IMG/VR virus record: IMGVR_UViG_3300029787_000002
Location: 108,908-172,907 of that record
Length of the DNA: 64,000 nucleotides
Source: a virus
Reading direction: 5' to 3' (one strand)
The notes beneath the pieces were generated by a model, which saw nothing but the letters and a program-made list of their open reading frames with translations, was not told the origin of the DNA and searched no databases. The translations under genes were made by a program, and so were the position numbers. Position 1 is the first letter of the stretch; every line of letters starts with the position of its first letter. Below are positions 23,894 to 49,100 of this stretch, in pieces.

Positions 23894-24074
23894 TTCTATG
23901 TTTGATATAGACGAGAAGAGTCTATTAAAAGAGTCTCTCGTTAAATACGTTTCGTATTTACAAAAAAGATTCTTCAAAGATAAGAATATCTCGGAAGAAG
24001 ATTATCATCAACAAATGAATCATATTGAATCAATTGTTGGAAAACTACATCTAAATGATCTCTATAAATTATGA
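23874..24074 (+). CDS. Hypothetical protein
   Basis: ORF track, GAGGA RBS. Confidence 0.65.
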   Translation: MSYLYHSSMFDIDEKSLLKESLVKYVSYLQKRFFKDKNISEEDYHQQMNHIESIVGKLHLNDLYKL

Positions 24075-24697
24075 GTATTGAAATGTTCTGCCCTCAGTGG
24101 TATTACGTTGAGAGCGTACCTGTTGAGTATCAGGCACAAATTGAAAAATTATTTGAACCGCAGATCAGAGACGAGAGTCTATATGTGCAATCCCCTTGGG
24201 ATTGTAACTGTTTATCTACATTTCAATCTAAAAGTAATTTAGATCTACCTTGGAATGACTGGTTAGAATGTTGTAGGTCAACACTTGACAAGATGATTGA
24301 CGCATTGCAACCTAAAATTGATATCGAAGTAGTACCTCAGGAAGCATGGGCAAATCTATATACTAAAGGTATGCATCAAGAGTACCATACACATAGTTTA
24401 CCAAACTGTAATCTAAGCATGTGTTACTTGTATGATGTACCCGAAGGTGACCCATTGTTTCGGTTCGTTTATAATGGACATGATGACTATAAAAGGTCAG
24501 GTCTAACCGAAGCATTCGATATGCCCATACAAACGAGAATCGTCCCTAAGGCAACTAAAGGAGACCTTATTATATTTCCCTCGCATTATCCTCACTTCGT
24601 TGCTCCTAACCCCTCTGATGCCCCTCGCATCACATTCTCAGGGAACCTGTACGTTGTGCCAAACAACAAAGCGTCACAGGACACTCCCACACCATAA
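24071..24697 (+). CDS. Putative 2OG-Fe(II) oxygenase (TIGR02466-like)
   Basis: WANLY..G.HQEYHTH, GDLIIFPS..PHFV.P, RITFSGN. Confidence 0.85.
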   Translation: MSIEMFCPQWYYVESVPVEYQAQIEKLFEPQIRDESLYVQSPWDCNCLSTFQSKSNLDLPWNDWLECCRSTLDKMIDALQPKIDIEVVPQEAWANLYTKGMHQEYHTHSLPNCNLSMCYLYDVPEGDPLFRFVYNGHDDYKRSGLTEAFDMPIQTRIVPKATKGDLIIFPSHYPHFVAPNPSDAPRITFSGNLYVVPNNKASQDTPTP

Positions 24698-24712
24698 AAT
24701 TCATGCTATGAT
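24656..24712 (+). promoter_or_regulatory. Early promoter module copy 1 (palindrome plus -10)
   Basis: GTGCC-AAACAACAAAGC-GTCAC (24656-24677), 29 nt, TATGAT preceded by TGC. Confidence 0.7.
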
Positions 24713-24908
24713 TACTCCTGTAAACAAACCTCAGACTTCTATCGGCATCATTAAGTCGATCAAGAAGGCACTCAAAGAGGCAGACAATGACCCCTTTCTT
24801 TATTCAATCGATGAAATCAAAACTCTCAAACGCAAAAAGCGTGAATGGCAAGACCTTGAACGCAGGGCGAACATCGAAGAACGCAATGGGTTCGGTCAGT
24901 ACCTATAA
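24708..24908 (+). CDS. Hypothetical protein (start uncertain)
   Basis: IKSIKKALKEADNDPFLYSIDEI..LKRK...NGFG. Confidence 0.6.
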   Translation: MITPVNKPQTSIGIIKSIKKALKEADNDPFLYSIDEIKTLKRKKREWQDLERRANIEERNGFGQYL

Positions 24909-25026
24909 ACTGGACAATGTAAACATCGAGTACAATAGTTCATTCGATTGTGTTCAAGAGAACGAGGATGATTGGGTATCTAGTTTCCTCGGTTCTGAAT
25001 ATGATGTAGTCAATTCACTTTATTAA
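24886..25026 (+). CDS. Small acidic protein
   Basis: ...ENEDDWVSSFLGSEYDVVNSLY; start reassigned. Confidence 0.5.
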   Translation: MGSVSTYKLDNVNIEYNSSFDCVQENEDDWVSSFLGSEYDVVNSLY

Positions 25027-25028
25027 AT

Positions 25029-25202
25029 ATGTCAGAGTCAACTTCCTATCATATCTACTACGATGATAAAGTTCTATTCAAGAACTTGAGTCTAGAAGAG
25101 TTCACATTGATCTGGAAGAAACTCTATCGGTCATACCATACTGATAGTATTACTTACTCAATTTGTAAGGATGACTTATGTACCTTAGAACAGAGTTATT
25201 AA
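25029..25202 (+). CDS. Hypothetical protein (57 aa, not in track)
   Basis: MSESTSYHIYYDDKVLFKNLSLEEF...EQSY. Confidence 0.7.
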   Translation: MSESTSYHIYYDDKVLFKNLSLEEFTLIWKKLYRSYHTDSITYSICKDDLCTLEQSY

Positions 25203-25391
25203 ATGAGAGTCAGACTGGAACCTCGAACAGGTAATCGAGAAGCACAAGAAATGTTCAGGTATCATTTACATCGTGATGGTTATGTTCATGTGAGCGAACG
25301 TCTCGATAGATGGTATGTTTTTCACCCAAATTCCAATACAGGTTTTTGGGTACACCCAACAAAAGACCCTAATTGGATTGTACACAAATGA
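25203..25391 (+). CDS. Hypothetical protein
   Basis: FWVHPTKDPNWIV C-terminus. Confidence 0.7.
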   Translation: MRVRLEPRTGNREAQEMFRYHLHRDGYVHVSERLDRWYVFHPNSNTGFWVHPTKDPNWIVHK

Positions 25392-25549
25392 ATCCCTACA
25401 AAGTCATCTACTGGAAGGACGGTTCACTTGATCGCAAAGAGATCATCACCTTTGGTGAAGAGTCCACCGCTAACTTGATGGACTTGTTTGAAGAGAACAT
25501 TAATTATGATGTACATTGTGTGAAATCCCAGACATTACTGACTAAATAG
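25388..25549 (+). CDS. Hypothetical protein (53 aa, not in track)
   Basis: ATGA coupling; MNPYKVIYWKDG... Confidence 0.6.
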   Translation: MNPYKVIYWKDGSLDRKEIITFGEESTANLMDLFEENINYDVHCVKSQTLLTK

Positions 25550-25621
25550 TATCAGTCAGGAGAACAAGATGATCTAAAACTCCATGATATTATGGAAATC
25601 AAATTCAACAAGTGAGGTTCA

Positions 25622-25789
25622 ATGCACAACATCTTTACACAGAAACAAACTCCAGAGTTTACAAACTTTAACGCTGAAACATACGAAAACGAGTTATGGA
25701 ATGACTACTTTGAATGTTTAGTCGATTCTGAAAACTTAAGACACAACCAATCAGCAAAGAAAATCTGTAGATATCTAGTTCCAGAATAG
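25622..25789 (+). CDS. Small protein with DYFECL...KKICR motif (55 aa, not in track)
   Basis: GAGG RBS; MHN...NDYFECLVDS...KKICRYL. Confidence 0.7.
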   Translation: MHNIFTQKQTPEFTNFNAETYENELWNDYFECLVDSENLRHNQSAKKICRYLVPE

Positions 25790-25844
25790 GACACTCTACA
25801 TACTGTCACAAACCCCCACACAGGGGGTTTTTTTGTGCTATACT
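25788..25844 (+). promoter_or_regulatory. Early promoter module copy 2 (palindrome in inverted orientation, hairpin, -10)
   Basis: AGGAC-ACTCTACATACT-GTCAC (25788-25809), AAACCCCC-ACACA-GGGGGTTT hairpin, TATACT at 25839. Confidence 0.75.
25810..25834 (+). terminator. Intrinsic terminator-like hairpin inside the promoter module
   Basis: AAACCCCC/GGGGGTTT stem followed by T-run. Confidence 0.6.
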
Positions 25845-25865
25845 AAGGGTACTGACGAACGAAGT

Positions 25866-27095
25866 ATGAATTTGAGACCCCATCAGCAAAGAGCATTCGA
25901 TAGGATGCAGCAGTATGATATCGGTAAGATCATCGTACCTACTGGTGGCGGTAAGACTTATATTATGATCGCTGACTTGATCGAGCAGATGCAGCAGAGA
26001 TATGACACTACAACTGTAGTTGTTGCACCTCGTATCCTATTGGCAAACCAATTGTGTGCAGAGTTCACAGAGTTTGTAAGCGATGCTGATATTATGCACG
26101 TCCACTCAGGTGAGACTCACTATACATCTAGCACTAAACCTGAAGATGTCAAACTATTTGTAAGCACACATACTAAGCATAAGATCATCTTTACTACATA
26201 TCATTCATTACATCGTGTAGTTGATTCAGATATCACTATTGATACTGTATACTATGATGAAGCACACAATGGAACAGGCAAAAAGTTCTTTGAAGGTGTG
26301 AATGGTATGGTTCACAATGCTACTCGTAGGTTCGCATTCACCGCAACACCTCGCATGGGACGTGGTGTCTCAGCAAATCGTGGCATGAACAACTCACAAG
26401 TGTGGGGACAGACTCTAGAGAACGTACCCGCAACTGAATTGATCGAAGCAGGTGCTATTCTTCCACCTCAGATCGTACCTTTTGAGACTGATAGAGTCAG
26501 AGAAAAGCATAACGCACATGATGTTGACGCTGAGAACCTCAAGGACATTCTAAGTTCACTTGATAGTCAGCAGTCAGCAAAAGTATTAGTGGCAGCACCT
26601 AGTTCAAGGATCCTTGGGTTCATGTTGGGTAGAACTGACATCCTAGAGTATCTCAAAGAGAATGGATATGATGTACTACACATCACATCTAAGTTCGGTG
26701 CTATCATCAATGGCAAGAAAGTAGGACGTGAAGAGTTCTTCAATACTCTTACAGAGTGGGGCAACGATGACAATCGTAGGTTCGTTGTTTTCCACTATTC
26801 TATCCTATCTGAAGGAATCAACGTCAATGGTCTCACTCATACTGTATTGTTGAGGAATCTACCTATCATCGAAATGGCACAAACTATCGGACGTGTTATC
26901 AGAGTGCATAAGGATGACCGCAAAGCAGTTGAATCTGGTAGTATACCCTCTGGTGCATTCCACCTCTACAAGAAGGGTGCAGGTTATGTAACTGTACCAA
27001 CTGGATTTAAGTATGGTGATCGCATTGCAAAGAGACTTCAGAGCGTGGTAGAGTACATTTTTGTGGAAGGCATCCCACCTCTTTCATATTGCTGA
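25866..27095 (+). CDS. SF2 (DEAH, type III Res-like) helicase
   Basis: LRPHQQ, PTGGGKT, DEAH, FTATP, LSEGINV, QTIGRVIR. Confidence 0.9.
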   Translation: MNLRPHQQRAFDRMQQYDIGKIIVPTGGGKTYIMIADLIEQMQQRYDTTTVVVAPRILLANQLCAEFTEFVSDADIMHVHSGETHYTSSTKPEDVKLFVSTHTKHKIIFTTYHSLHRVVDSDITIDTVYYDEAHNGTGKKFFEGVNGMVHNATRRFAFTATPRMGRGVSANRGMNNSQVWGQTLENVPATELIEAGAILPPQIVPFETDRVREKHNAHDVDAENLKDILSSLDSQQSAKVLVAAPSSRILGFMLGRTDILEYLKENGYDVLHITSKFGAIINGKKVGREEFFNTLTEWGNDDNRRFVVFHYSILSEGINVNGLTHTVLLRNLPIIEMAQTIGRVIRVHKDDRKAVESGSIPSGAFHLYKKGAGYVTVPTGFKYGDRIAKRLQSVVEYIFVEGIPPLSYC

Positions 27096-27098
27096 TGT

Positions 27099-27156
27099 GT
27101 GACAGTTGACAAAGTGTCACAACATCCCACACAACACCCCAAATCTTTGTTATATT
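27099..27156 (+). promoter_or_regulatory. Early promoter module copy 3
   Basis: GTGAC-AGTTGACAAAGT-GTCAC (27099-27120), 30 nt, TATATT preceded by TGT. Confidence 0.8.
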
Positions 27157-27162
27157 AATAAT

Positions 27163-27317
27163 GTCGAAACAAACCAACCTAAGACTTTCAAGGTTGCGGA
27201 CACCAGAGGTCTAATGGATTTAATCCTGATCAACGAAGGTTAATTTATTAATCTGTCTTGGCGATTCCTTTGCATACGCATTTAAATCGAACTTAAGCAG
27301 TTGAGTTTTGTTTCGAC
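27163..27317 (+). ncRNA. Candidate structured non-coding RNA (about 155 nt)
   Basis: Starts at the predicted TSS; perfect 11-bp closing stem GTCGAAACAAA/TTTGTTTCGAC; only a 17-codon ORF from ATG 27161. Confidence 0.55.
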
Positions 27318-27338
27318 CCATCATAATCACAGGTCACT

Positions 27339-27536
27339 ATGGTCACACTACAACTGACAAAAGATCAATTTTTTGAACTGTATGATGCAGTCAAAGATCT
27401 ACCAGACATCTACAAATCCGAAGCACTTGCGGGTGAGTATGAATTGGATGCAGCACACTATGATCTTTTTGATGCAGTCAAAGTAATGGATAAAATTGCT
27501 CTTAATCCATCGGTCGAAATCTTTCTAGGAAAATAA
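27339..27536 (+). CDS. Hypothetical early protein
   Basis: ORF track. Confidence 0.7.
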   Translation: MVTLQLTKDQFFELYDAVKDLPDIYKSEALAGEYELDAAHYDLFDAVKVMDKIALNPSVEIFLGK

Positions 27537-27578
27537 CCCTATGTCTAATAAATATTACAACAGTCAGGGTTTACTACG

Positions 27579-27806
27579 ATGAGTAAGATCAAAGATGTCA
27601 CCAACTCACCAGAAGACTGGGAGGATTTTTGGTACAATTCAGAGGATGGATTTTACTTTGATTCTGTTACTGGTTTATCCTACCAGATCGAAGGATGGGA
27701 TGGGCAAGAGGACAGTGCATCAGAGTATCAAAAAAAGATCTATCTGGAATCTACCATCGCTGAATTGGAAAGTCAAGCAGATGACCCCATGGGAATCGGC
27801 AAGTGA
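27579..27806 (+). CDS. Acidic Trp-rich small protein
   Basis: DVTNSPEDWEDFW; AATAAATA late box at 27547-27554. Confidence 0.7.
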   Translation: MSKIKDVTNSPEDWEDFWYNSEDGFYFDSVTGLSYQIEGWDGQEDSASEYQKKIYLESTIAELESQADDPMGIGK

Positions 27807-27807
27807 T

Positions 27808-27865
27808 GTGACAGTTGGCAAAGTGACCACTAAACCCCCACAGAGGGGTTTTTCTATGGCATACT
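27808..27865 (+). promoter_or_regulatory. Early promoter module copy 4
   Basis: GTGAC-AGTTGGCAAAGT-GACCAC (27808-27830), AAACCCC/GGGGTTT hairpin, CATACT at 27860. Confidence 0.75.
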
Positions 27866-27890
27866 AGTAATAGTTAAACAAACAACACAC

Positions 27891-28094
27891 ATGGACATCG
27901 CTCTCGAACGTGAATATGCTATCGACAACATGGCAGACTCACTCTTCGATCAAATGAAAGATTTGATCAAGCAAGATCAGCATAATGATGCTATTGCAGT
28001 TTGTGAAGAGTGGTTGGTAGATGGCAAAGACCCTCAGGATGGCGATTATAAGTTTATCTTCCTTAAGAACTTCACACTAAACGAGGACAACTAA
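27891..28094 (+). CDS. Hypothetical early protein
   Basis: ORF after AC-rich leader. Confidence 0.75.
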   Translation: MDIALEREYAIDNMADSLFDQMKDLIKQDQHNDAIAVCEEWLVDGKDPQDGDYKFIFLKNFTLNEDN

Positions 28095-28095
28095 A

Positions 28096-28341
28096 ATGAA
28101 ACAATCCGAAAAGGACTTCCAAAACTGGATCGAATCATGTCCCGACCTACTCAGGTTTAGACTTGAGTATGTTGACGTGAGAGCAGATGTTGAAAACGTC
28201 ATCACAACTTACGAATACGAATTTGCGGATGACGAGACTAGAAAAGAGGTGACTGAAGCAGTCATCGAAGATTTCTATGATCAAGATTGGTCAGACCATA
28301 ACGAATTCATTGCACACCTATTAGACAGGAGACTCTCATGA
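28096..28341 (+). CDS. Hypothetical acidic early protein
   Basis: GAGGA RBS; FQNWIESCP. Confidence 0.75.
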   Translation: MKQSEKDFQNWIESCPDLLRFRLEYVDVRADVENVITTYEYEFADDETRKEVTEAVIEDFYDQDWSDHNEFIAHLLDRRLS

Positions 28342-28568
28342 AAACTATCGATGTTCCTTTTACCTATGATCAATTAAGTGACGTGATTTACTATCTTGAG
28401 TGGAAGATCTCAGAGATCAACGAAGCAGGATGTGATCTCGAATTTCCAGAGATAGAGAACACCTTACAACAGTTACAGGAGACTCAGGACAGACTCAGAG
28501 TGAGAACTGACGAAGATTATCAACTCATGATGAACAATAGAGCAAAACAACCAACAGCAGAGTGGTAG
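28338..28568 (+). CDS. Hypothetical early protein
   Basis: GGAG RBS, ATGA coupling. Confidence 0.75.
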   Translation: MKTIDVPFTYDQLSDVIYYLEWKISEINEAGCDLEFPEIENTLQQLQETQDRLRVRTDEDYQLMMNNRAKQPTAEW

Positions 28569-28569
28569 T

Positions 28570-28627
28570 GTGCCAGTTCAATTAGTGTCACATGACCTAT
28601 TGTAATAGGTCTCTGATGCTTTATAAT
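28570..28627 (+). promoter_or_regulatory. Early promoter module copy 5
   Basis: GTGCC-AGTTCAATTAGT-GTCAC (28570-28591), GACCTAT/ATAGGTC hairpin, TATAAT at 28622. Confidence 0.85.
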
Positions 28628-28652
28628 ATTAGTATAGCAACGGAGATCACAC

Positions 28653-28958
28653 ATGCACAACTTCAAACAATTTCTTGACTATTGTGAATCATTCTACAGT
28701 CCAGAGCATCCTGACTGTTTATATCCTATCGATGGATTGACTAGGGGTGAGTTAGCACTTGCAATTCTCAACTATCTTGACTTATGTGCAGAGGATGAGA
28801 ATGTTAACTGGGGTGATGGTGATTCACTAGACAGAGAGAGAGTCAGAGATTTTGTTATTGAGCGTAGAGCAATTGATTACAACAGAATTCAGAAAATTTT
28901 AGCAATTGAAGATGCTAAGAACCCAGTAAGAGGTCTCAACTTCACAGGAGGACAGTAA
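28653..28958 (+). CDS. Conserved cyanophage early protein
   Basis: FLDYCESFY...LYPI...WGDGDSLDRERVRD. Confidence 0.8.
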   Translation: MHNFKQFLDYCESFYSPEHPDCLYPIDGLTRGELALAILNYLDLCAEDENVNWGDGDSLDRERVRDFVIERRAIDYNRIQKILAIEDAKNPVRGLNFTGGQ

Positions 28959-28959
28959 G

Positions 28960-29067
28960 ATGCAGAAAATTATCATCGAAGACATTACTGACTACAAAAA
29001 GTTACAGGAATGGATTGACAGTCTTGACCCTAGACTTAAAGAACAATACGAAAAGGAGGACAACTAA
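28960..29067 (+). CDS. Micro-protein (35 aa)
   Basis: GGAGG RBS; MQKIIIEDITDYKKLQEWIDSLDP. Confidence 0.55.
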   Translation: MQKIIIEDITDYKKLQEWIDSLDPRLKEQYEKEDN

Positions 29068-29068
29068 A

Positions 29069-29236
29069 ATGAATCAATTTAAAGTCGAATGTTCAGAGGT
29101 TAATTACTTCACAGTATTAGTTGAAGCAGAAACCGAAGAGGAAGCAAGGAAACTTGCTAACGCAAACATTAACTCATTTGAAGTCGAAGATGAGTATGTT
29201 TCAGAGTGGACTATTGAAAGTGTGGAGGAACTGTAA
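29069..29236 (+). CDS. DpnD/PcfM-like small acidic protein
   Basis: AAGGAGG RBS; FKVECSEVNYFTVLVEAETEEEARKLA. Confidence 0.65.
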   Translation: MNQFKVECSEVNYFTVLVEAETEEEARKLANANINSFEVEDEYVSEWTIESVEEL

Positions 29237-29523
29237 TGAGTTACGACAATTCAAAAGAGGTAACAATCAGGTTATCTAAAAGGGAACTCGGAATTCTCAA
29301 CATGTATACCTCTGGTTTATTTGCTCGCATCGATAGCGATGTAACAGAGTGGGGTAGTTCATGCACTGGTCATGATACAATCGAACATGACTATTTTGGT
29401 AAGGATGCAATTCTCGGATTAAGAAAAGAAGTCAAGAATGCAGTAGACTCATTCTATACTCATGAGAATGATCTAAGACTACCAAAAGATCACAACGGAA
29501 ATCCAAACCCTTGTGCCAGATGA
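29236..29523 (+). CDS. Hypothetical early protein
   Basis: GGAGG RBS; stop codon lies inside palindrome copy 6. Confidence 0.75.
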   Translation: MSYDNSKEVTIRLSKRELGILNMYTSGLFARIDSDVTEWGSSCTGHDTIEHDYFGKDAILGLRKEVKNAVDSFYTHENDLRLPKDHNGNPNPCAR

Positions 29524-29570
29524 TAAAGTGGCACAAAACCCCTCGCAATGGGGTGACCTCTTGCTATAAT
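29513..29570 (+). promoter_or_regulatory. Early promoter module copy 6
   Basis: GTGCC-AGATGATAAAGT-GGCAC (29513-29534), ACCCC/GGGGT hairpin, TATAAT at 29565. Confidence 0.85.
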
Positions 29571-29597
29571 AAAGACATGAACACACAAAGGAGAATT

Positions 29598-29795
29598 ATG
29601 GAAAAAGGTTTAAACATCGAAGTCACATCTTCACAGTATGAGTATCTCTATGAAGTACTCATGGAAGCATACTCAAACGATGTTGCAGAGCAAAAAGACT
29701 GGGATGTCCAGACTTTCGATAACTTACTTGACAATGTAATGAATGCGAAGTCAACTTACTTGTCAGATTCAACTCGTGGGATTCTAAAACGATAA
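29598..29795 (+). CDS. Hypothetical early protein
   Basis: AAGGAG RBS before ATG 29598. Confidence 0.75.
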   Translation: MEKGLNIEVTSSQYEYLYEVLMEAYSNDVAEQKDWDVQTFDNLLDNVMNAKSTYLSDSTRGILKR

Positions 29796-29864
29796 TTCTT
29801 ACATTCTTAATTCCAGTGGGTGACTACCTACACCCTATAAACATTTAATTTTATTCCTTTTATT

Positions 29865-30026
29865 ATGAGTCATTCAGTCAACACAGAAATCCTTGAAAAC
29901 CTTTACGATGAGATCTTAAATGAACTCAGTTTCAAGAATATCCAACTCGGTATTATGCTACCGATGCATAGACTTGAAGAGATCGCAGCAGATCACGCAC
30001 AAAAACGTTTTGAAGAGTTAGGTTAA
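29865..30026 (+). CDS. Hypothetical early protein (53 aa, not in track)
   Basis: MSHSVNTEILENLYDEI...AQKRFEELG. Confidence 0.7.
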   Translation: MSHSVNTEILENLYDEILNELSFKNIQLGIMLPMHRLEEIAADHAQKRFEELG

Positions 30027-30080
30027 CTCTTTAATAACGATTCTTCTAATTAAAACTTCACTTCAAACCTTTAATAAGAC

Positions 30081-30254
30081 ATGAACACAATTTTCGCAGC
30101 AATCACCGAGGGAGTTCCATTTTATGACTTCCCTAAAAGTCCAATTTTGGTGCTTGGGTTTTTTGGCATTCTCGTGGCAATGGTCACAGTATACACAGTT
30201 AATAAAGCATACTTCAATTCACCTTTTAACCCTGACAATCAAAAGAGATCATGA
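30081..30254 (+). CDS. Small membrane protein (57 aa, not in track)
   Basis: PILVLGFFGILVAMVTVYTVNKAYFNSPFN. Confidence 0.7.
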   Translation: MNTIFAAITEGVPFYDFPKSPILVLGFFGILVAMVTVYTVNKAYFNSPFNPDNQKRS

Positions 30255-30421
30255 TCACACAAAAGAAACCAACATTCGCTGAACTTGAGAAAAGATGGCG
30301 AGAGCATAATCATGAGTATAGCGAAGAGTTTACTCAAAACATCTACGATGCTCACATTGCAATTGCTGAACAGTTCCCATTCTTATATGACAGTTACGGA
30401 TTCCCAAAGGAGGACTACTAA
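30251..30421 (+). CDS. Hypothetical protein (56 aa, not in track)
   Basis: ATGA coupling; MITQKKPTFAELEKRW. Confidence 0.65.
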   Translation: MITQKKPTFAELEKRWREHNHEYSEEFTQNIYDAHIAIAEQFPFLYDSYGFPKEDY

Positions 30422-30562
30422 ATGAAATTTACAGAAGACCAAATTGAATACCTTAAAGAGTGTGTTTCATTCCATTATGAAATGAACTCTGACATCAAAG
30501 AACATATAATTGACATTAACGCACAATGCAGCAAAAAACTATGGGAGTGTGCCAGTGAATAA
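30422..30562 (+). CDS. Hypothetical protein (46 aa, not in track)
   Basis: AGGAGG RBS; stop inside palindrome copy 7. Confidence 0.65.
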   Translation: MKFTEDQIEYLKECVSFHYEMNSDIKEHIIDINAQCSKKLWECASE

Positions 30563-30607
30563 AGTGTCACAACATGGGTTTCTTTTAATCTCATTATTGT
30601 TTATAAT
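30549..30607 (+). promoter_or_regulatory. Early promoter module copy 7
   Basis: GTGCC-AGTGAATAAAGT-GTCAC (30549-30570), 31 nt, TATAAT at 30602. Confidence 0.85.
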
Positions 30608-30633
30608 AATAGTATAAACAAACAAAGAACATT

Positions 30634-30876
30634 ATGAACGCAACTTCAGTATACACAGAACCAGTAAACAGAATCAAGCAAAGAATTCTGTTTGATGACA
30701 ATCTACAGAATATGGCATGTTGCTGTTGTGACTGGGCAGAATTCGTTGTTGAGATCAACGAGTGGGGAATCGAGAGACTTGGAGGTGTCTGGTTCGATGA
30801 TCTTTCAGAATTCGATATACAGCACTTAGACATCTTCATTAAGGCAGAAAACGGTTACATCAGAGAGGAGGTTTAA
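30634..30876 (+). CDS. Hypothetical early protein
   Basis: ORF directly after promoter. Confidence 0.75.
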   Translation: MNATSVYTEPVNRIKQRILFDDNLQNMACCCCDWAEFVVEINEWGIERLGGVWFDDLSEFDIQHLDIFIKAENGYIREEV

Positions 30877-30879
30877 ATC

Positions 30880-31095
30880 ATGTGTAACAATCAACTTAAA
30901 AAGTGGGAAACAGGAACAGAGGGAGAAACATGGGATTTTGGTTATGTTGACAATCCCAAGCAATTTATCGAAGAGGTTTTTGAAATCGCATTTGGGGATG
31001 ATGCAATCAACCGTAACTATTCGATGGGCGAAGTTTTAGATAGACTCATGGAATTTAGTGATGATGCATTACGTTATAATGGAGAGTTAGACTAA
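30880..31095 (+). CDS. Conserved cyanophage early protein
   Basis: FIEEVFEIAFGDDAINRNYS..EVL..L.EFSDDAL. Confidence 0.8.
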   Translation: MCNNQLKKWETGTEGETWDFGYVDNPKQFIEEVFEIAFGDDAINRNYSMGEVLDRLMEFSDDALRYNGELD

Positions 31096-31253
31096 TGACT
31101 AATGTTCCAATCAGTTTTGACGAAGCATATCAGATGACGAGATTATACGATACTCTCAGAGATATGGATTTTGAACTTACTGACAATCAAGTGGCAGTAT
31201 TTGATAAATTACTTGATATTCGTAAATATGTCAAGTCAGAGGGTGCCAGTTAA
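31095..31253 (+). CDS. Hypothetical protein (52 aa, not in track)
   Basis: MTNVPISFDEAYQ..LYDTLRDMDFELT; stop inside palindrome copy 8. Confidence 0.7.
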   Translation: MTNVPISFDEAYQMTRLYDTLRDMDFELTDNQVAVFDKLLDIRKYVKSEGAS

Positions 31254-31300
31254 TTATGTGTCACACTCTACCTCGCATCGGTGGTTCAAACCGCTATAAT
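31243..31300 (+). promoter_or_regulatory. Early promoter module copy 8
   Basis: GTGCC-AGTTAATTATGT-GTCAC (31243-31264), 30 nt, TATAAT at 31295. Confidence 0.85.
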
Positions 31301-31307
31301 AAAGACA

Positions 31308-31362
31308 TGAACAGAGCGTTGCTCACTTTATCAATTGCTGAGGGATACCCTCGCTTTGTTCA
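31308..31362 (+). ncRNA. Candidate 5'-terminal structured RNA / leader
   Basis: 11-bp stem TGAACAGAGCG/CGCTTTGTTCA beginning at the predicted TSS; inner GAGGG-ATA-CCCTC. Confidence 0.45.
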
Positions 31363-31389
31363 AACAATTTTCACTTTACTTAAAATCAA

Positions 31390-31569
31390 ATGAGAATGAC
31401 TAAAGTTCAAGTAGTTTCACAATTTCGAGAAATGCTTCGTGAGTCAGGTGCAAACCTTAGGGGCGATTCAATTGCTAAACGTGAAGCATTTAACGATTAT
31501 GTTGACATGCTTAACAAAGATGGCGATGTAACCGACTGGCAAGCATACAACTGGAGCAACCCATTCTAA
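31390..31569 (+). CDS. Conserved cyanophage early protein (59 aa, not in track)
   Basis: MTKVQVVSQFRE...DSIAKREAFNDYVDMLNKDG.VT.WQ..NWSNPF. Confidence 0.8.
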   Translation: MRMTKVQVVSQFREMLRESGANLRGDSIAKREAFNDYVDMLNKDGDVTDWQAYNWSNPF

Positions 31570-31691
31570 TGACAATCACAGAATATAAAGAACTATGCAA
31601 ACAAAATAAATTGCATATCGGTGAGGAAGTCCCTGAAGACAATGACACCAAGAACAACGAAGACGAAACAAACACTTATCAAGGAGCATAA
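31569..31691 (+). CDS. Micro-protein (40 aa)
   Basis: TAATG coupling; MTITEYKELCKQNKL. Confidence 0.5.
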   Translation: MTITEYKELCKQNKLHIGEEVPEDNDTKNNEDETNTYQGA

Positions 31692-31695
31692 ACAC

Positions 31696-31902
31696 ATGAT
31701 CATCGAAAATTTCAGTAGAGAGCAATTTATTTTACTCTCAAAGGCACTTGATAATTATCGTATTTACATGACATCAGAAGAAGAAACTTTATCTGAAGAA
31801 ATTTTAGATAATGTCTTTTATCCATCTATTGGAATGAGTAAACCGAGAAATACCGCAAAGGTTACAAGTATAGCGGAAGCGATCCGCAAGGGACATAAGT
31901 AA
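31696..31902 (+). CDS. Hypothetical protein
   Basis: AAGGAG RBS before ATG 31696. Confidence 0.7.
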   Translation: MIIENFSREQFILLSKALDNYRIYMTSEEETLSEEILDNVFYPSIGMSKPRNTAKVTSIAEAIRKGHK

Positions 31903-31921
31903 CTATACTAACCTAAACAAA

Positions 31922-32134
31922 ATGAGTTGGAATCTTATCCCTTGGAGCGAACAAACAACGAACGTAATGGCAACAATGACCTATGAAGACTTAATCACTA
32001 AGTTACAACAATTGAACCCTAATCAGTTGAAGAAAAATGTTGCTATCTATGATGAACATTTAAATGAGAAGGTATTAGTTCACAATGAATTAATCTTCTT
32101 TGATAACAATCAGTTCCCCTATTTAAAGATTTAA
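31922..32134 (+). CDS. Hypothetical protein
   Basis: MTYEDLITKLQQLNPNQLKKNVAIYD. Confidence 0.7.
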   Translation: MSWNLIPWSEQTTNVMATMTYEDLITKLQQLNPNQLKKNVAIYDEHLNEKVLVHNELIFFDNNQFPYLKI

Positions 32135-32380
32135 ATGAACTTCCAAAAAGGTGACTATTACTCACTAAATGACTTAAATGGATGGGTTAATTTCATCGAT
32201 AGTAGTTATATCACTCTTGTTATAAATGAGTGGACTAAATGTGATGAATTAGCAAAAGGTAGTCGTAGTAATGTACATCAAGTGCAGTTACTAGTATACC
32301 CTCACCAATGGAAAGATATGGTGAAAAGTAATCGAAATCGCTTTGAAGATGGTCTACTAAATAACACTCATGAGAAGTAA
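32135..32380 (+). CDS. Hypothetical protein
   Basis: GWVNFIDSSYITL...LLVYPHQW. Confidence 0.75.
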   Translation: MNFQKGDYYSLNDLNGWVNFIDSSYITLVINEWTKCDELAKGSRSNVHQVQLLVYPHQWKDMVKSNRNRFEDGLLNNTHEK

Positions 32381-32507
32381 TCCGCAACCTATTCTTAATA
32401 GCGAGTTTAACACATTTTGGACTATATGTAAAGAACTCGTGGTAAGTACTTGGGAGTTGTATAGAACAACTGTAAGTAACAAAGTAACAAGAATAAGGGA
32501 AGATTAA
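32370..32507 (+). CDS. Small hypothetical protein (45 aa, not in track)
   Basis: ACTAAATA late-like box at 32356-32363; MRSNPQPILNSEFNTFWTICKEL. Confidence 0.5.
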   Translation: MRSNPQPILNSEFNTFWTICKELVVSTWELYRTTVSNKVTRIRED

Positions 32508-32579
32508 CGAATGTTGTTAAATATTAAAATAAATCTATTGTTGTTAACAATACCGAGATTAATTGCTCAGGTAATTGTA

Positions 32580-32608
32580 CTCTTAGCACGCAACTTACCG
32601 ATTGTCAA
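32580..32608 (-). promoter_or_regulatory. Possible leftward sigma70 promoter
   Basis: Minus strand TTGACA-17 nt-TAAGAG with extended TG; -10 is imperfect. Confidence 0.4.
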
Positions 32609-32633
32609 TGATAGTCAGCAAACACAGATTTTC

Positions 32634-32663
32634 TTGACAGATTATAAACAATTATGGTATAAT
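32634..32663 (+). promoter_or_regulatory. Sigma70 promoter
   Basis: TTGACA-18 nt-TATAAT with extended TG. Confidence 0.8.
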
Positions 32664-32699
32664 AACTCTGTAAGGGTTCAGAAATTCCTCTAAGTATCA

Positions 32700-32900
32700 A
32701 TGCTAAGTAACATCAAAGCACCTCAGAAGTACATGGAGTTGTTAACACTTTGGGAGGAAGGATTATGCCCACTAAATGAAGGTATTGCTTTGTTTCAGTT
32801 CTTGTTAGATACTGACCAATGTTGGGAGGATGAGATATTATCTAATACAGCAAGTTATATGGTTATGGAAGGATTTTGTTATTACGTTTACACCCCTTAA
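32700..32900 (+). CDS. Hypothetical protein
   Basis: LFQFLLDTDQCW. Confidence 0.7.
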   Translation: MLSNIKAPQKYMELLTLWEEGLCPLNEGIALFQFLLDTDQCWEDEILSNTASYMVMEGFCYYVYTP

Positions 32901-32909
32901 TTAACAACA

Positions 32910-33119
32910 ATGACCCAAAAGATGCTCTATAAAGTTTATAACAATGAATGTGAACTTATAGGGGAGTTTGTATCAATTTACGATATGGAACATTTTATGG
33001 ACGATGTTAGAAACTCACGGGGAGAGAGGTATAAAGAATTGCCCAGATTATCGGTATTTGATTATATTAAATCGATCGGTTACTATATGGAAATTAATTG
33101 CCCTGTGACAGTTAAATAA
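32910..33119 (+). CDS. Hypothetical protein
   Basis: Stop inside palindrome copy 9. Confidence 0.7.
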   Translation: MTQKMLYKVYNNECELIGEFVSIYDMEHFMDDVRNSRGERYKELPRLSVFDYIKSIGYYMEINCPVTVK

Positions 33120-33162
33120 GTGGCACAATAGGGGTTGTAAGGGGTTGCCCACCTGCTATAAT
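33105..33162 (+). promoter_or_regulatory. Early promoter module copy 9
   Basis: GTGAC-AGTTAAATAAGT-GGCAC (33105-33126), 30 nt, TATAAT at 33157. Confidence 0.85.
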
Positions 33163-33187
33163 TAATGTATACCAAACAAAGGGACAC

Positions 33188-33508
33188 ATGAGAAAAATTG
33201 AAAGACAAATGAACAACGCAATCAGAACAGGCAAAAACTTCTCATCATCCAATACAATGGTTAAGCAAGGATGGGAGGGAGAAGCAGATGTTTATTTACA
33301 TGGAAATCACATTGCAACTGTGAAGAACAATTCAATCGTCATTAAAGATGGGGGTTGGCAGTCTAATACAACGAAATCTAGACTTAATGCACTACTAGAC
33401 GAATTTTCTTATGGTATGAGAGTATTTCAGAAAAACTTTGAGTGGTTCGTATCTTATAAGAACGTTAAAGAGGATTTCGTAAGCGGTATGGAGTTAGCAA
33501 TCGACTAG
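33188..33508 (+). CDS. Conserved cyanophage early protein
   Basis: MRKIERQMNNAI...VYLHGNHIA...DGGWQSNTTKSRLNALL..VFQKNFEWFV. Confidence 0.85.
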   Translation: MRKIERQMNNAIRTGKNFSSSNTMVKQGWEGEADVYLHGNHIATVKNNSIVIKDGGWQSNTTKSRLNALLDEFSYGMRVFQKNFEWFVSYKNVKEDFVSGMELAID

Positions 33509-33537
33509 TTGACAGAATCACAGTTATAGAGTATAAT
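33509..33537 (+). promoter_or_regulatory. Consensus sigma70 promoter
   Basis: TTGACA-17 nt-TATAAT. Confidence 0.85.
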
Positions 33538-33565
33538 AGAGGGGTACAGACAACCCCTCTTTTTT
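33538..33565 (+). terminator. Rho-independent terminator
   Basis: AGAGGGGT-ACAGACA-ACCCCTCT followed by T-run. Confidence 0.8.
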
Positions 33566-33743
33566 ATTGTTTATGACTTAAGGCAGTAATCACAGTTACT
33601 AATTATTAAGAATGGCAGTTAAATTGCCCCCCTTAAATATAAAAAAGGGCCATAACCTAACCTACAAAGGTACCCCAGAGCAAGCAATATATTATTAAAG
33701 ATCTTAAATACTAGTAGATTCAAAAAATTTCCCAGAAAAATTT

Positions 33744-33947
33744 ATGCCTAATAGAGATTATCCCCAAGATCTACGAGTATGGTGTCTAGAAAGTTTGATT
33801 CAGATGGAAAGTCAACTCCACAGTGACATGTACCAGGTTGCAGACATGTACCTGGGTTCGTATACAACTAAAAACTCCGAAGCACTATATACACTATGGA
33901 TGGGGTGGAAACTAAAACACCCCACTAAGAATACGAACCCCCTGTAA
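33744..33947 (+). CDS. Hypothetical protein
   Basis: ORF track. Confidence 0.65.
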   Translation: MPNRDYPQDLRVWCLESLIQMESQLHSDMYQVADMYLGSYTTKNSEALYTLWMGWKLKHPTKNTNPL

Positions 33948-33952
33948 AATAA

Positions 33953-34117
33953 ATGTCACAAAGATTCTACACAACACTCGAAGAAGACGACTTTGGCGAT
34001 CTAATCCTTACGATACCTTACGAAGTGTGTGAAGAACTTGGATGGTCCGTCAATACAAAACTAGATTACACTATAGAGGAAGACTCCTTTACACTGAAGA
34101 AACACCCAGATGAATAA
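33953..34117 (+). CDS. AbrB/MazE/SpoVT-like DNA-binding protein (54 aa, not in track)
   Basis: GDLILTIPYEVCEELGWSVNTKLDYTIEEDSFTLKK fits the swapped-hairpin pattern. Confidence 0.75.
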   Translation: MSQRFYTTLEEDDFGDLILTIPYEVCEELGWSVNTKLDYTIEEDSFTLKKHPDE

Positions 34118-34343
34118 TGAACAAGAAGTAGCAGAAGCACTCAATGCTATCAACGATTGTCTAATTGCATTAGGTAAGCGTTTACAAGAAGTTGAGGAGT
34201 ATGTTGCTACAATGAATATTGCTGAGAAGGTGTTGTATAAACCAAACGGACAGGAAAAGTACTTAAATATAAAGGAAAACTACGATCTTATCTACCAGAG
34301 ATTAGATAAACTAGAGAAAGAAAGACCATGGGATGTAAAATAG
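34110..34343 (+). CDS. Hypothetical coiled-coil protein
   Basis: ORF track. Confidence 0.7.
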   Translation: MNNEQEVAEALNAINDCLIALGKRLQEVEEYVATMNIAEKVLYKPNGQEKYLNIKENYDLIYQRLDKLEKERPWDVK

Positions 34344-46100: not shown

Positions 46101-49100
46101 CAAGAGAAAGATTGCATCTTCTAACAAATCGGAAAAGATTACTGATATTGTTATCGATGGAACAGACGTTTATGCATCTTTAGAACTTGCTGCTACACAA
46201 TCTAACGCAGATATTGATACTGGTGTTGCTAAGATTGCTTTTGGTGTTAATACTATTAGTGTAACTTGGATCAAGCAATTTGCTAATAGTCTGTATTCTA
46301 TTATGGATACTAGTCTTGCTATTGATGAATTCAAAGAACTTTATGTTACTGGTGGTCTAAGACTTAAGTCAGACGATACTACTAGAGATAGTTTCTGGGT
46401 TGGTAAGATTGATGCAAATGGCACATTTATCTGGAACTATCGTTATCTTGCTCCAACTGGAGGATCTATTACTGTTACTCCTAGTTCTGCAATTGATATC
46501 TTTGGTGATTTAAACATTGCGTTTACTAGCACCAATAATACCAATACTTTACCTACTGTTGATACTGTCAAGATTGGTTATGACGGAAAAATTAAAAATC
46601 ATACAACTAACCAATTTACACAAAACAATACTGAGGGTATTACTGCTTACTCTGTTGATGTTGATAACTCTGGTGATATTAATATTGTTGGACAAACTCA
46701 ATGGAATAGAAACGAGTTTATCTTCCCCTTCACTGCAGGGTCTAATGCTGATACAACTACTCATTATACCTTAACTTCTACATCAACAAACAACTCCATC
46801 ACTTATGCCAATGATGTTGCTAAGATCCATGGTTATGCAACTGGTGCAACTACTTGGACTCAAGGTAATCTGCAAATTACTTCTGCTCAATTAGGAGCAA
46901 GACTTAATAGTGACTTCACTGTTGAGATGATGATTTATAAAGATACTAATACATCAAGTTTAACTGGTGGTAGTATCACTCAACATACTCTTCTTGCTAT
47001 CGGTGATGCTGAAGAGGCAACTGGTGGTCTTTGGTTATACTATGACGTAAGTAGCGGATACTTAGAACTTGTTGTAACTAACGCAACTACTAAACTTAAT
47101 AGTGCATCTGGTGCAGGACAGTCCTCTCTCAACAACATGTTTGCTGATAATACATGGCAGTTTATTGGATTGAAGAAAGAAGGAAATGTCTTTACCGTCT
47201 ATGTGAACGGTATTCAAGCAATTCAATCTACAGTTCCTAGTACTGCTCTTGGTAGTAAGCATCTTTATGTTGGTCAGATCCCTGGTAGATCTGGTAGTGC
47301 AGGTAACTTTAGAATCAATGAGCAAGGTCAGTTCCATGTTGATAACTTCAGATTAAGAAACAGAGCGATTACTCCTACTGTTCCTTCTGATGTTAGTGCA
47401 TTCCCAACTGCAGGTGGATTTGGTCTCCAATACACTTGGACTGATACTGCATGGTTCACTACTAACCTTAACAGATATGACTTCATCGATTATGATGGAT
47501 TCTCACTTAAAATTGATAAGAATGCTGATGCTGCAAGAATCGGTACAGTTTCTACTCAAACTAATACTCAACTAGGATTTACAAGAACTGCTGTTACTCC
47601 TGTAACTGGTAGTACTCTTACAATGCAGAATACTGGTTATGCTTTATCTGAGGCAGGATTCCAATCTCTTGACTTTGATGATGCTACAATCAATATGACT
47701 CCTGCAACTGAGACTCTTACTTATACTCAGGATGTTTGGAGTTCTAGAACTGCAACTGTTCCTTCTCCTGGATCTCAGAAACTTAATGTATCTGCTGTTG
47801 TTAAAGACAGATATTTCTTCAAGGTTACTCCTACAACTAAGATTGATAACATTCAAGAGTTAACGATAAATCAGTCATTTAGGTTTACTGTTGGTAGTAA
47901 GTTACGTCTAAACAATGCTGCTGGAACATTTGTCAACAGCGGTTATATCGTAAGAGTTGATGATGCAAATAATAAAGTATATCTTGCTGTAAACAATAAT
48001 ACATGGACAGATGATACTGCTACTGGAAACTTAGTAACTGAACAGTTTAGTGAGCAATCAACTTATGGTATTGTTGGACCTATTCCAAATGATATCAACG
48101 TTATTGAGGGTTATACATTCCCATTAGTTAATAATACAACTCCAGGAACTTTTGATATTGATCTTGACAAATATAATTTAGATGGTACTTACAACGCAGC
48201 AGGTAGTCAAAATCTTGACTCATTTGCTAAATTCAAACCATTTGCAACTATTGATTACTCTGTAAGAATCGATGAAGTAGGGGGTTCTTCTCCATTCATC
48301 GTTGGTTCTGTTGTACAACTGACTTCCAGTGATATCTCATTCAATGCAGCATATAGCACAACACAGATAACAAACTTAACTGGCGTAACCAAAATTACAT
48401 TAGTTGCTAATCTTGATAAGATCTTACAAGTTTCTTCTGTTGCAAACAGTGATGAAGTTTACGTTATTACAAGTACTAGTCATTACCTTTCTGCAGGAGA
48501 CGTACTTTATGTTGATGGTAACCCATCTCAGACTGTAGGTAGTGTTGTATATGATGAATACGATGGTGCATTCCCTGTTGATCGTGTTATCAGTCCTCTT
48601 GAATTCACTTATAAGTTAAATCAAGCAGCAGTTACTTCACCTGCTACAACTGCAGGAAATGTCAATATCTTCATGAAGTCTCCGACTTTGAAGATGTACT
48701 ATGGTCACCAGTATATCTTTGACTTAAGTCACTCCTCACTTCTTGGTGGCAACCTTTCCTTTGCTAAGGATAGTCTATACAAACTTGAATATTCATTCAA
48801 CTCTATTGAAAGGGTCGGAACCCCTGGTGTCACTGGAGCAGGATCACCTACTCCATCTGTGAAACTAAAAGTTGACCCAACAATTGTTACTAATATTTCT
48901 TACTACTTTGACCCTTCTAGAACTGGTTCTGATTCTCCTGTTGTGCCTGGTAGTTACCTCGATGTTGTAGACTCTCCATATAAGGGTAACTTTGTGATCT
49001 CCTCTGTTGCAGGTCAGACTATTACTCGTGGTGCTGATATTATCAAGTTCCCTCTTCTTAACGAACCAGAAGGTGCTGCTGATATCAACCAAGCAAGTTA

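Follow-up and report, generated by a model that had tools for sequence, protein, structure and literature searches.

What fires the first genes of a T4-like cyanophage? Among the main primary producers of the ocean, a sizeable share is killed by these viruses, which to our knowledge carry neither MotA nor AsiA. How they time their first genes has been asked ever since 2016, the year in which a non-canonical early element was reported. The question arises again in the stretch of DNA analyzed here (the window), which covers 64,000 nucleotides, bases 108908-172907 of the 172,907-bp virus record IMGVR_UViG_3300029787_000002 (~99% complete). An earlier note, made from the sequence alone, had drawn attention to nine copies of a 22-bp palindrome in this window, each set at a nearly constant distance before a -10 box. 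Here, we describe from direct observation the anatomy and conservation of these palindrome-promoter modules, or cassettes, their counterpart in host genomes, and the homology breakpoints that fall on them, and we ask which protein reads the palindrome. Judging from sequence, the cassettes are very probably early-class promoters, and the palindrome is likely read by a host protein; that this protein is PlmA has marginally better than even odds. The whole of our best reading, to which we give a somewhat better than even chance, is that these early promoters mimic the promoter of the host yfr2 gene and recruit host PlmA. The promoter class itself has probably already been reported for T4-like cyanophages; the idea of a host reader gains a candidate with a name.

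Anatomy of the modules and their spread among phages

Searching both strands of the window with the consensus of the earlier note, at three mismatches or fewer, recovered all nine palindromes that it had placed there (they open the modules listed below). The search gave 17 strand-hits against 1.95 expected, a number reached in none of 100 shuffles. The proposed gap of 29-31 nt between palindrome and -10 box also held, at 29 nt in two copies, 30 nt in six, and 31 nt in one. The -10-like hexamers are TATAAT (five copies), TATATT, TATGAT, TATACT, and CATACT, often preceded by TGn. All nine modules are oriented rightward, including the copy at 25788, which had been called inverted: on its + strand, a terminator hairpin follows, and then TGn-TATACT 29 nt away. 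The note was right that a consensus TTGACA -35 is not typical here, but weak -35-like hexamers do exist (e.g., TTGTAA, with three to four of six bases matching), 8 nt past the palindrome, which leaves 16-17 nt to the -10. Second hairpins between palindrome and -10, likewise anticipated, are present in about six of the nine copies; two of them form strong terminators, and another four have fold energies of -6 to -9 kcal/mol. With a predicted transcription start site ~7 nt past the -10, the palindrome would be centered near -53, as had been suggested.

Four further copies with equal spacing to the -10 lie outside the window, at genome positions 44422, 46683, 67641, and 95523. A matrix built from the 13 genome copies finds 21-26 matches in the genome, compared with 0-6 in shuffles. 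The linker sequence diverges among copies while the 29-31 nt spacing to the -10 is kept, and in four of the 13 copies the linker fold is only 0 or -0.9 kcal/mol. An A/C-rich AAACAAAC run occurs in six of the 13 leaders. Eight of the nine upstream open reading frames (ORFs) in the window terminate -4 to +14 nt from the palindrome start, and four stop codons lie inside the palindrome. The nine modules are as follows.

Module 1, 24656-24712, + strand: degenerate palindrome 24656-24677, 29-nt linker, -10 TATGAT 24707-24712; overlaps the 3' end of the 2OG-Fe(II) oxygenase gene 24071-24697
Module 2, 25788-25844, + strand: palindrome 25788-25809, intrinsic-terminator hairpin 25810-25830, TGn-TATACT 25839-25844; heads the 409-aa helicase gene 25866-27095
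Module 3, 27099-27156, + strand: perfect palindrome 27099-27120, 30-nt hairpin-free linker, -10 TATATT 27151-27156
Module 4, 27808-27865, + strand: 23-bp variant palindrome, terminator-like linker hairpin of -9.5 kcal/mol, -10 CATACT 27860-27865; heads three small acidic ORFs, 27891-28568
Module 5, 28570-28627, + strand: palindrome 28570-28591, -35-like TTGTAA in the loop of the linker hairpin, -10 TATAAT 28622-28627
Module 6, 29513-29570, + strand: palindrome 29513-29534, overlapping the stop of ORF 29236-29523, linker hairpin, TGn-TATAAT 29565-29570
Module 7, 30549-30607, + strand: palindrome 30549-30570, its spacer containing the stop codon of ORF 30422-30562, 31-nt linker, -10 TATAAT 30602-30607
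Module 8, 31243-31300, + strand: palindrome 31243-31264, overlapping the stop of ORF 31095-31253, linker, -10 TATAAT 31295-31300; heads a run of ~9 small ORFs
Module 9, 33105-33162, + strand: palindrome 33105-33126, overlapping the stop of ORF 32910-33119, TTGTAA -35-like hexamer, TGn-TATAAT 33157-33162; heads a Kyano_Gp96-family gene and the last small genes before a baseplate gene

Two details of individual modules stand apart. Module 3 has an ORF-free leader of 155 nt, and over 27157-27338 about 180 nt contain no credible ORF; Rfam gave no match there at gathering level. The first 25 nt of this stretch (27150-27174) are 100% identical in the cyanophage P-RSM1, where the remainder is replaced. 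Modules 6 and 8 share an identical 18 nt from the -10 onward (29565-29578 and 31295-31308, + strand), and the predicted start site in both is the A of an in-frame ATG, so their messages may be leaderless.

Is the palindrome a site in duplex DNA, or is it the stem of a hairpin? For symmetry statistics, we used 372 non-identical modules from related loci (L089-L211) plus this genome. The symmetry reaches one base further out on each side, with T before the site in 84% and A after it in 93%, which gives a site of 22 bp, or 24 bp with its flanks, with the two-fold symmetric form TGTGMCA-N10-TGKCACA. Within the spacer, T is preferred at positions 8-9 and A at 14-15. Arm positions 4 and 19 do not covary (C-G 160, A-G 92, C-T 50, A-T 44; chi-square p = 0.05), and positions 7 and 16 are non-complementary in 263 modules (G-G 144, C-C 119) versus complementary in 71. 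When folded as RNA, most palindrome copies are weak, at -1 to -3 kcal/mol. The lack of covariation, the anti-pairing at 7/16, and the weak folds together favor a protein site over a hairpin: the pattern fits a duplex site for a protein and not a selected hairpin, and on these grounds an RNA or DNA hairpin role for the palindrome was rejected. The same-base asymmetry at 7/16, near the palindrome center, is seen in both orientations relative to the -10.

The module recurs in relatives. Allowing at most one mismatch in the symmetric core, we counted 17 sites in Syn9 versus 3 for the reversed control, 19 versus 5 in P-TIM40, and 17 versus 4 in P-RSM1. The matrix from this genome places Syn9 modules at 47205, 48559, 49079, 51001, 51212, and 52997, each heading a small gene or the helicase (before gp68, gp73, gp75, gp78, gp79, and gp89/90). 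These six, at 47.2-53.0 kb, are matched by at least six modules at 50.3-55.0 kb in the syntenic region of P-TIM40. An exact 14-base pattern was found in at least 120 viral contigs of IMG/VR, a scan whose counts are lower bounds and include chance matches; among the matches listed, 112 of 185 exact palindromes in viral contigs have TAnnnT 27-33 nt downstream. In relatives, the modules often have a good TTGACn 8 nt past the palindrome, frequently in the loop of a GC hairpin. The recurrence in Syn9, P-TIM40, P-RSM1, and the contigs marks the cassette as the family-wide standard promoter type for small genes of T4-like cyanophages. Doron et al. reportedly described in 2016 a "novel regulatory element" over early genes in Syn9 and P-TIM40, conserved in T4-like cyanophages. 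The element described here is probably the same one. In the literature searched, no reader protein is named for the cyanophage element.

The most telling recurrence lies outside the family. Mic1, a freshwater siphophage of Microcystis (MN013189), first came up as a relative of one contig from the viral pattern scan. It has 51 matches versus 1 in the control, all of them within 57.3-72.1 kb, and its layout is identical: palindrome, 8 nt, -35, 17 nt, -10. Copies occur singly before small genes as well as in tandem arrays. Transcriptome sequencing of Mic1 assigned gp49-gp73 (52.6-71.9 kb) to the early phase and gp69-gp73 to a pioneer cluster at 0.5 h (PMC11237433), and it is at gp69-gp73 that the sites are densest. 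Mic1 and the phage of our window have only Dam and PhoH homologues in common, so that no candidate for a shared phage-encoded reader emerged beyond these two. Enrichment of the element was also sought in T4, HTVC008M, Ma-LMM01, P-SSP7, and S-TIM5, and none was seen; the pelagiphage HTVC008M is filed under Kyanoviridae yet infects SAR11, a non-cyanobacterial host. The simplest candidate reader is a host factor that is specific to cyanobacteria and present before infection.

The Mic1 arrays (L239, 65.9-72.1 kb) have periods of 56-58 bp and 62-64 bp, lie between tiny pioneer genes, and are followed by a -35/-10 after the last copy only. They may form an enhancer-like stack of sites, or else have another role, for example as an origin or a partition site.

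The counterpart before host yfr2 genes and the candidate reader

If a host protein reads the site, does the host use the same site itself? The 24-bp symmetric pattern, sought in 201 cyanobacterial genomes, was found mainly in the larger ones. The Microcystaceae (81 genomes, sampled around Crocosphaera) had 22 sites versus 0 in the control. The site lies ~30 nt before a -10-like box in 13 of 14 newly fetched Microcystaceae loci (L242-L254) and in L233 and L235. A common, highly conserved RNA sequence follows the site in 16 of 16 loci, including L255, where the RNA gene follows and the distance from site to -10 is not established. Rfam recognized this RNA as Cyano-1 (RF01701) at all eight Microcystaceae sites submitted, and its 5' end carries the GUGUGAGGAGU motif of the Yfr2 small RNA (sRNA) family. 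We then scored the 100-nt regions upstream of 39 Cyano-1/Yfr2 genes of Prochlorococcus and marine Synechococcus with a matrix made from phage sites only. The median score was 4.2, compared with -7.8 for background (p = 4e-16), and 46% of the regions scored above the 99th percentile of the background. The best match was almost always on the sense strand and started 56-64 nt before the Rfam RNA model. Phage and host yfr2 promoters share a half-site, GTGACAGTT followed by G or A, and in the Microcystaceae yfr2 genes and some picocyanobacterial copies the two half-sites stand face to face with a 6-bp gap, as in the phage. The earlier idea of a dimeric host factor thus gains support from an equal element, at an equal promoter position, before host yfr2 genes.

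A palindromic element before picocyanobacterial yfr2 genes has been described. Lambrecht, Wahlig and Steglich (2018, PMC6191309) named the conserved palindromic element of yfr2 promoters CGRE1. Its length is 22 nt in high-light Prochlorococcus, whereas in marine Synechococcus and low-light Prochlorococcus it measures 21 nt; its first base lies 55-57 nt ahead of the yfr2 transcription start site (PMC6191309). In the phage, where the start site is a prediction, the 22-nt site ends 29-31 nt before the -10. A pull-down with CGRE1 recovered the GntR-family protein PMM1637; the pure protein shifted the element in an electrophoretic mobility shift assay (EMSA), and the shift was lost with an R50A substitution (PMC6191309). 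In an Escherichia coli reporter, PMM1637 increased the activity of the yfr2 and yfr4 promoters, and its homologues are reported to be universal in cyanobacteria and exclusive to them (PMC6191309). PMM1637, from Prochlorococcus MED4, is the homologue of PlmA. The PlmA regulon was still called unknown in 2020, and PII-PipX and thioredoxin are among the partners of PlmA (PMC7344720). We found one GntR-domain gene, of ~340 codons, in each of three Prochlorococcus genomes and no GntR domain in this phage. The match of the phage site to the yfr2 element in sequence, length, and position is what makes PlmA the best candidate reader. In the papers searched that mention CGRE1, PMM1637, or PlmA, we found no link to phage promoters.

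How might such a promoter work? The cassette is laid out as the symmetric site, 8 nt, a weak -35-like hexamer (often within the loop of a hairpin), 16-17 nt, the -10, and an A/C-rich leader. Host RNA polymerase with its housekeeping (primary) sigma factor would use the often TG-extended -10 and the weak -35. The symmetric site, centered at about -53.5, would be read as duplex by a dimeric protein already in the cell; if this is PlmA, its dimer would cover positions from about -64 to about -43, with its midpoint two helical turns ahead of that of the -35, and activate from a class-I-like position. Linker hairpins would terminate transcripts arriving from the preceding cassette. In this way, an activator of the host would be put to use in switching on the first genes of the phage. 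We infer that PlmA binds the phage site and that the outcome is activation rather than repression; published binding and activation concern the MED4 yfr2 and yfr4 promoters only. For the broader proposal, that T4-like marine myoviruses and the unrelated siphophage Mic1 both start infection by yfr2-promoter mimicry through PlmA, we see an even chance.

If true, the proposal would supply the missing factor for the first genes of T4-like cyanophages, and it can be tested with the existing EMSA, pull-down, and two-plasmid green fluorescent protein reporter. PlmA would gain a large and physiologically meaningful set of targets, and the state of the host (high light, nitrogen stress, PII-PipX signaling, redox) could gate the onset of infection.

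Several other sites turned up in the host scans. Some recurrent matches of a phylum-wide exact search (L222-L225) lie in coding sequence and were set aside. In filamentous cyanobacteria (L226-L229, L231, L237), a perfect palindrome precedes a conserved 163-aa secreted protein that belongs to no known family, and not Cyano-1; a -10-like box follows after 27 nt (L237) to ~31 nt (L226, L231). Other single chromosomal sites lie before ppk and before an ndhD/F-like gene. These single sites and the filamentous ones may be further targets of the PlmA type. A scan of the window with Rfam for a phage-borne copy of yfr2 found only a tRNA.

Other readers, or none

Could the palindrome instead be read by a protein of the phage? 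Such a protein might be an activator delivered with the virion, as the earlier note had offered, an early auto-activator, or a repressor that shuts early transcription off. T4 is established precedent for virion-delivered and early transcription modifiers, and a site ending 7 nt before the -35 is compatible with a repressor. A possible reader is even at hand in the operon of the last module:

SpoVT/AbrB/MazE-fold gene, 33953-34117, + strand: 54 aa, net charge -10, predicted structure with pLDDT 87

The gene is conserved in cyanomyoviruses, 291 records of which contain it, and no other phage in the collection has it. The best matches of its predicted fold to PDB structures are AbrB-N, SpoVT, and MazE (TM ~0.7), and a sequence-profile search of PDB gave no match. 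With a net charge of -10 and a single invariant arginine, the protein would be a poor DNA binder, and Mic1 has no homologue of it; both points lowered its standing as the reader, and it could instead be an antitoxin mimic or protein decoy. More generally, a phage reader has to contend with Mic1, whose ~50 copies come with only Dam and PhoH in common with this genome; with the missing GntR domain; and with an equal element before the chromosomal yfr2 genes of uninfected cyanobacteria. We regard a phage-encoded reader as unlikely, and the virion-delivered activator is disfavored by the use of an equal site in the unrelated Mic1. NtcA, CRP, sigma-54, DnaA-box, HLR1/RpaB, CIRCE, and parS were also considered informally and dropped for misfit of spacing or half-site.

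A slightly less probable alternative keeps a host protein, PlmA or another, and reverses its sign: it would bind as a brake, the TG-extended -10 alone giving basal activity, and would tie early transcription to the nitrogen, light, or redox state of the host or to a later shut-off. Many GntR-family proteins are established repressors, extended -10 promoters can function with neither a -35 nor an activator, and the partners of PlmA suggest conditional activity (PMC7344720). These points are set against the increase in yfr2 and yfr4 reporter activity with PMM1637 (PMC6191309), the center at -53.5, upstream of the -35 and thus in an activator-type position, and the fact that the densest Mic1 sites precede the fastest genes. 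Least probable of all is that the palindrome has no reader and is mainly a recombination patch or an RNA-level terminator or processing hairpin, kept by copying. The homology breakpoints described below, the closeness of upstream stop codons to the palindromes, and the two linkers that are strong terminators would all suit it. Against it stand the lack of covariation between the arms, the avoidance of pairing at one symmetric position, the weak folds of most copies, the spacing to the -10 that is held despite diverging linkers, and the presence of the site both upstream of sRNA genes in hosts and in a phage without sequence similarity; the junction role, for its part, fits as a by-product of repeated promoters.

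What weighs against recruitment of PlmA by yfr2-like promoters? For this phage, we infer the start sites and the early timing from the anatomy of the modules and from relatives, and the proposed identity of the element with CGRE1 and with the Doron motif rests on position, length, symmetry, and the shared half-site. The four copies outside the window head larger genes, of 728, 356, 309, and 312 aa (the last at genome 95630), which suggests that not every member of the class need be strictly early. Some cyanophages are without the element, which is thus not required for infecting cyanobacteria. About 17 bp, or 1.6 turns, separate the half-site centers, a distance that a simple dimer would not usually span. 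In many yfr2 promoters of low-light Prochlorococcus and marine Synechococcus, the half-sites stand back to back, and the two arrangements may not be equally readable for a PlmA dimer. CGRE1 has been stated to be restricted to marine picocyanobacteria (PMC6191309), unlike the face-to-face form that we find before yfr2 in Microcystaceae. Finally, a wider host regulon was sought in five picocyanobacterial genomes, where the strict phage pattern showed no enrichment. This last result agrees with the published statement that CGRE1 is found nowhere else in the MED4 genome (PMC6778093). One strict-pattern match recurs in the picocyanobacteria, within a conserved gene, probably that of RNase P RNA.

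Exchange junctions, neighborhood, and comparison with known systems

DNA similarity and gene content (in the window, psbA, a 2OG-Fe(II) oxygenase, an SF2 helicase, and a Kyano_Gp96-family protein) place the source of the window among the T4-like cyanomyoviruses, with P-RSM1 as the nearest named relative at ~80% identity. Homology blocks shared with P-RSM1 end at 25786/25792, 27118, 28592, 29543, and 30546. The first pair flanks a 513-bp extra cassette present in P-RSM1. Unrelated sequence takes the place of the cassettes after modules 3, 5, and 6 in that phage, and the small gene 31095-31212 stands after a different module there. Modules make up 6% of the region and contain six of the 20 inner block ends (P = 0.001); five of the 20 fall on the palindrome itself (P = 1e-4). 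The cassettes thus also serve as homology patches at which relatives gain, lose, and swap small genes, because they are repeated and abut the upstream stop codons. In uncultured cyanophage contigs, the element marks both early-type gene cassettes and their exchange points.

The region from 24 to 34.4 kb is syntenic with Syn9 gp55-gp93 and P-RSM1 CPPG_00007-00042, and in all three phages small rightward genes and one helicase form a run that ends at the baseplate gene. Its main features beyond the modules are as follows.

Module-headed gene set, 24787-34343, + strand: ~45 ORFs, mostly of 35-106 aa and acidic, plus one SF2 helicase
Baseplate gene, at 34328 in the window

Most of the ~45 small proteins behind the modules have an isoelectric point of 4-5. 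The basic exceptions are 25203-25391, 31642-31902, and the Kyano_Gp96-family protein, whose gene (33188-33508) is the first one 3' of the last module. Perfect 12/12 sigma-70 promoters (TTGACA-17/18-TATAAT) without a palindrome occur at 32634-32663 and within 33509-33560, both on the + strand. The second has a terminator-like hairpin directly after it (33538-33560) and lies in an ORF-free gap of 235 bp (33509-33743); it may give a very short transcript or act as an attenuator.

How does the cassette compare with systems already known? It shares with CGRE1 the half-site and a palindrome of 21-22 nt, which lies at what is predicted to be an equal promoter position and is followed by a promoter that is -10-only or has a weak -35. 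It differs in number and setting, as CGRE1 belongs to a chromosomal sRNA promoter with one to few copies per genome, whereas the phage cassette is repeated 13-50 times. It differs as well in arrangement, with half-sites that are back to back in many picocyanobacteria and face each other across 6 bp in the phage.

The promoter-early stem-loops (PeSLs) of T4-type coliphages and vibriophages (Arbiol et al. 2010, PMC2839356; Comeau et al. 2014, PMC4122927) offer a second comparison. Like these, the cassettes are repeated, co-oriented terminator/promoter units that flank small ORFs in a hyperplastic region, here nine in 8.5 kb, and where close relatives differ by insertion, deletion, or replacement, the borders of the change lie at the units. 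The core of a PeSL, however, is a GC-rich stem-loop directly before a near-consensus TTGACA-N17-TATAAT, whereas the conserved core here is an A/T-centered palindrome upstream of a weak -35, with an optional hairpin that varies or is missing in four of the nine window copies. Dense PeSLs were not seen in the cyanophage S-PM2 (Puxty et al. 2015, PMC4503421). Because a GC stem-loop with a near-consensus promoter is not what is conserved, we do not file the cassettes as PeSLs; they are PeSL-like in their recombination behavior without being members of that class.

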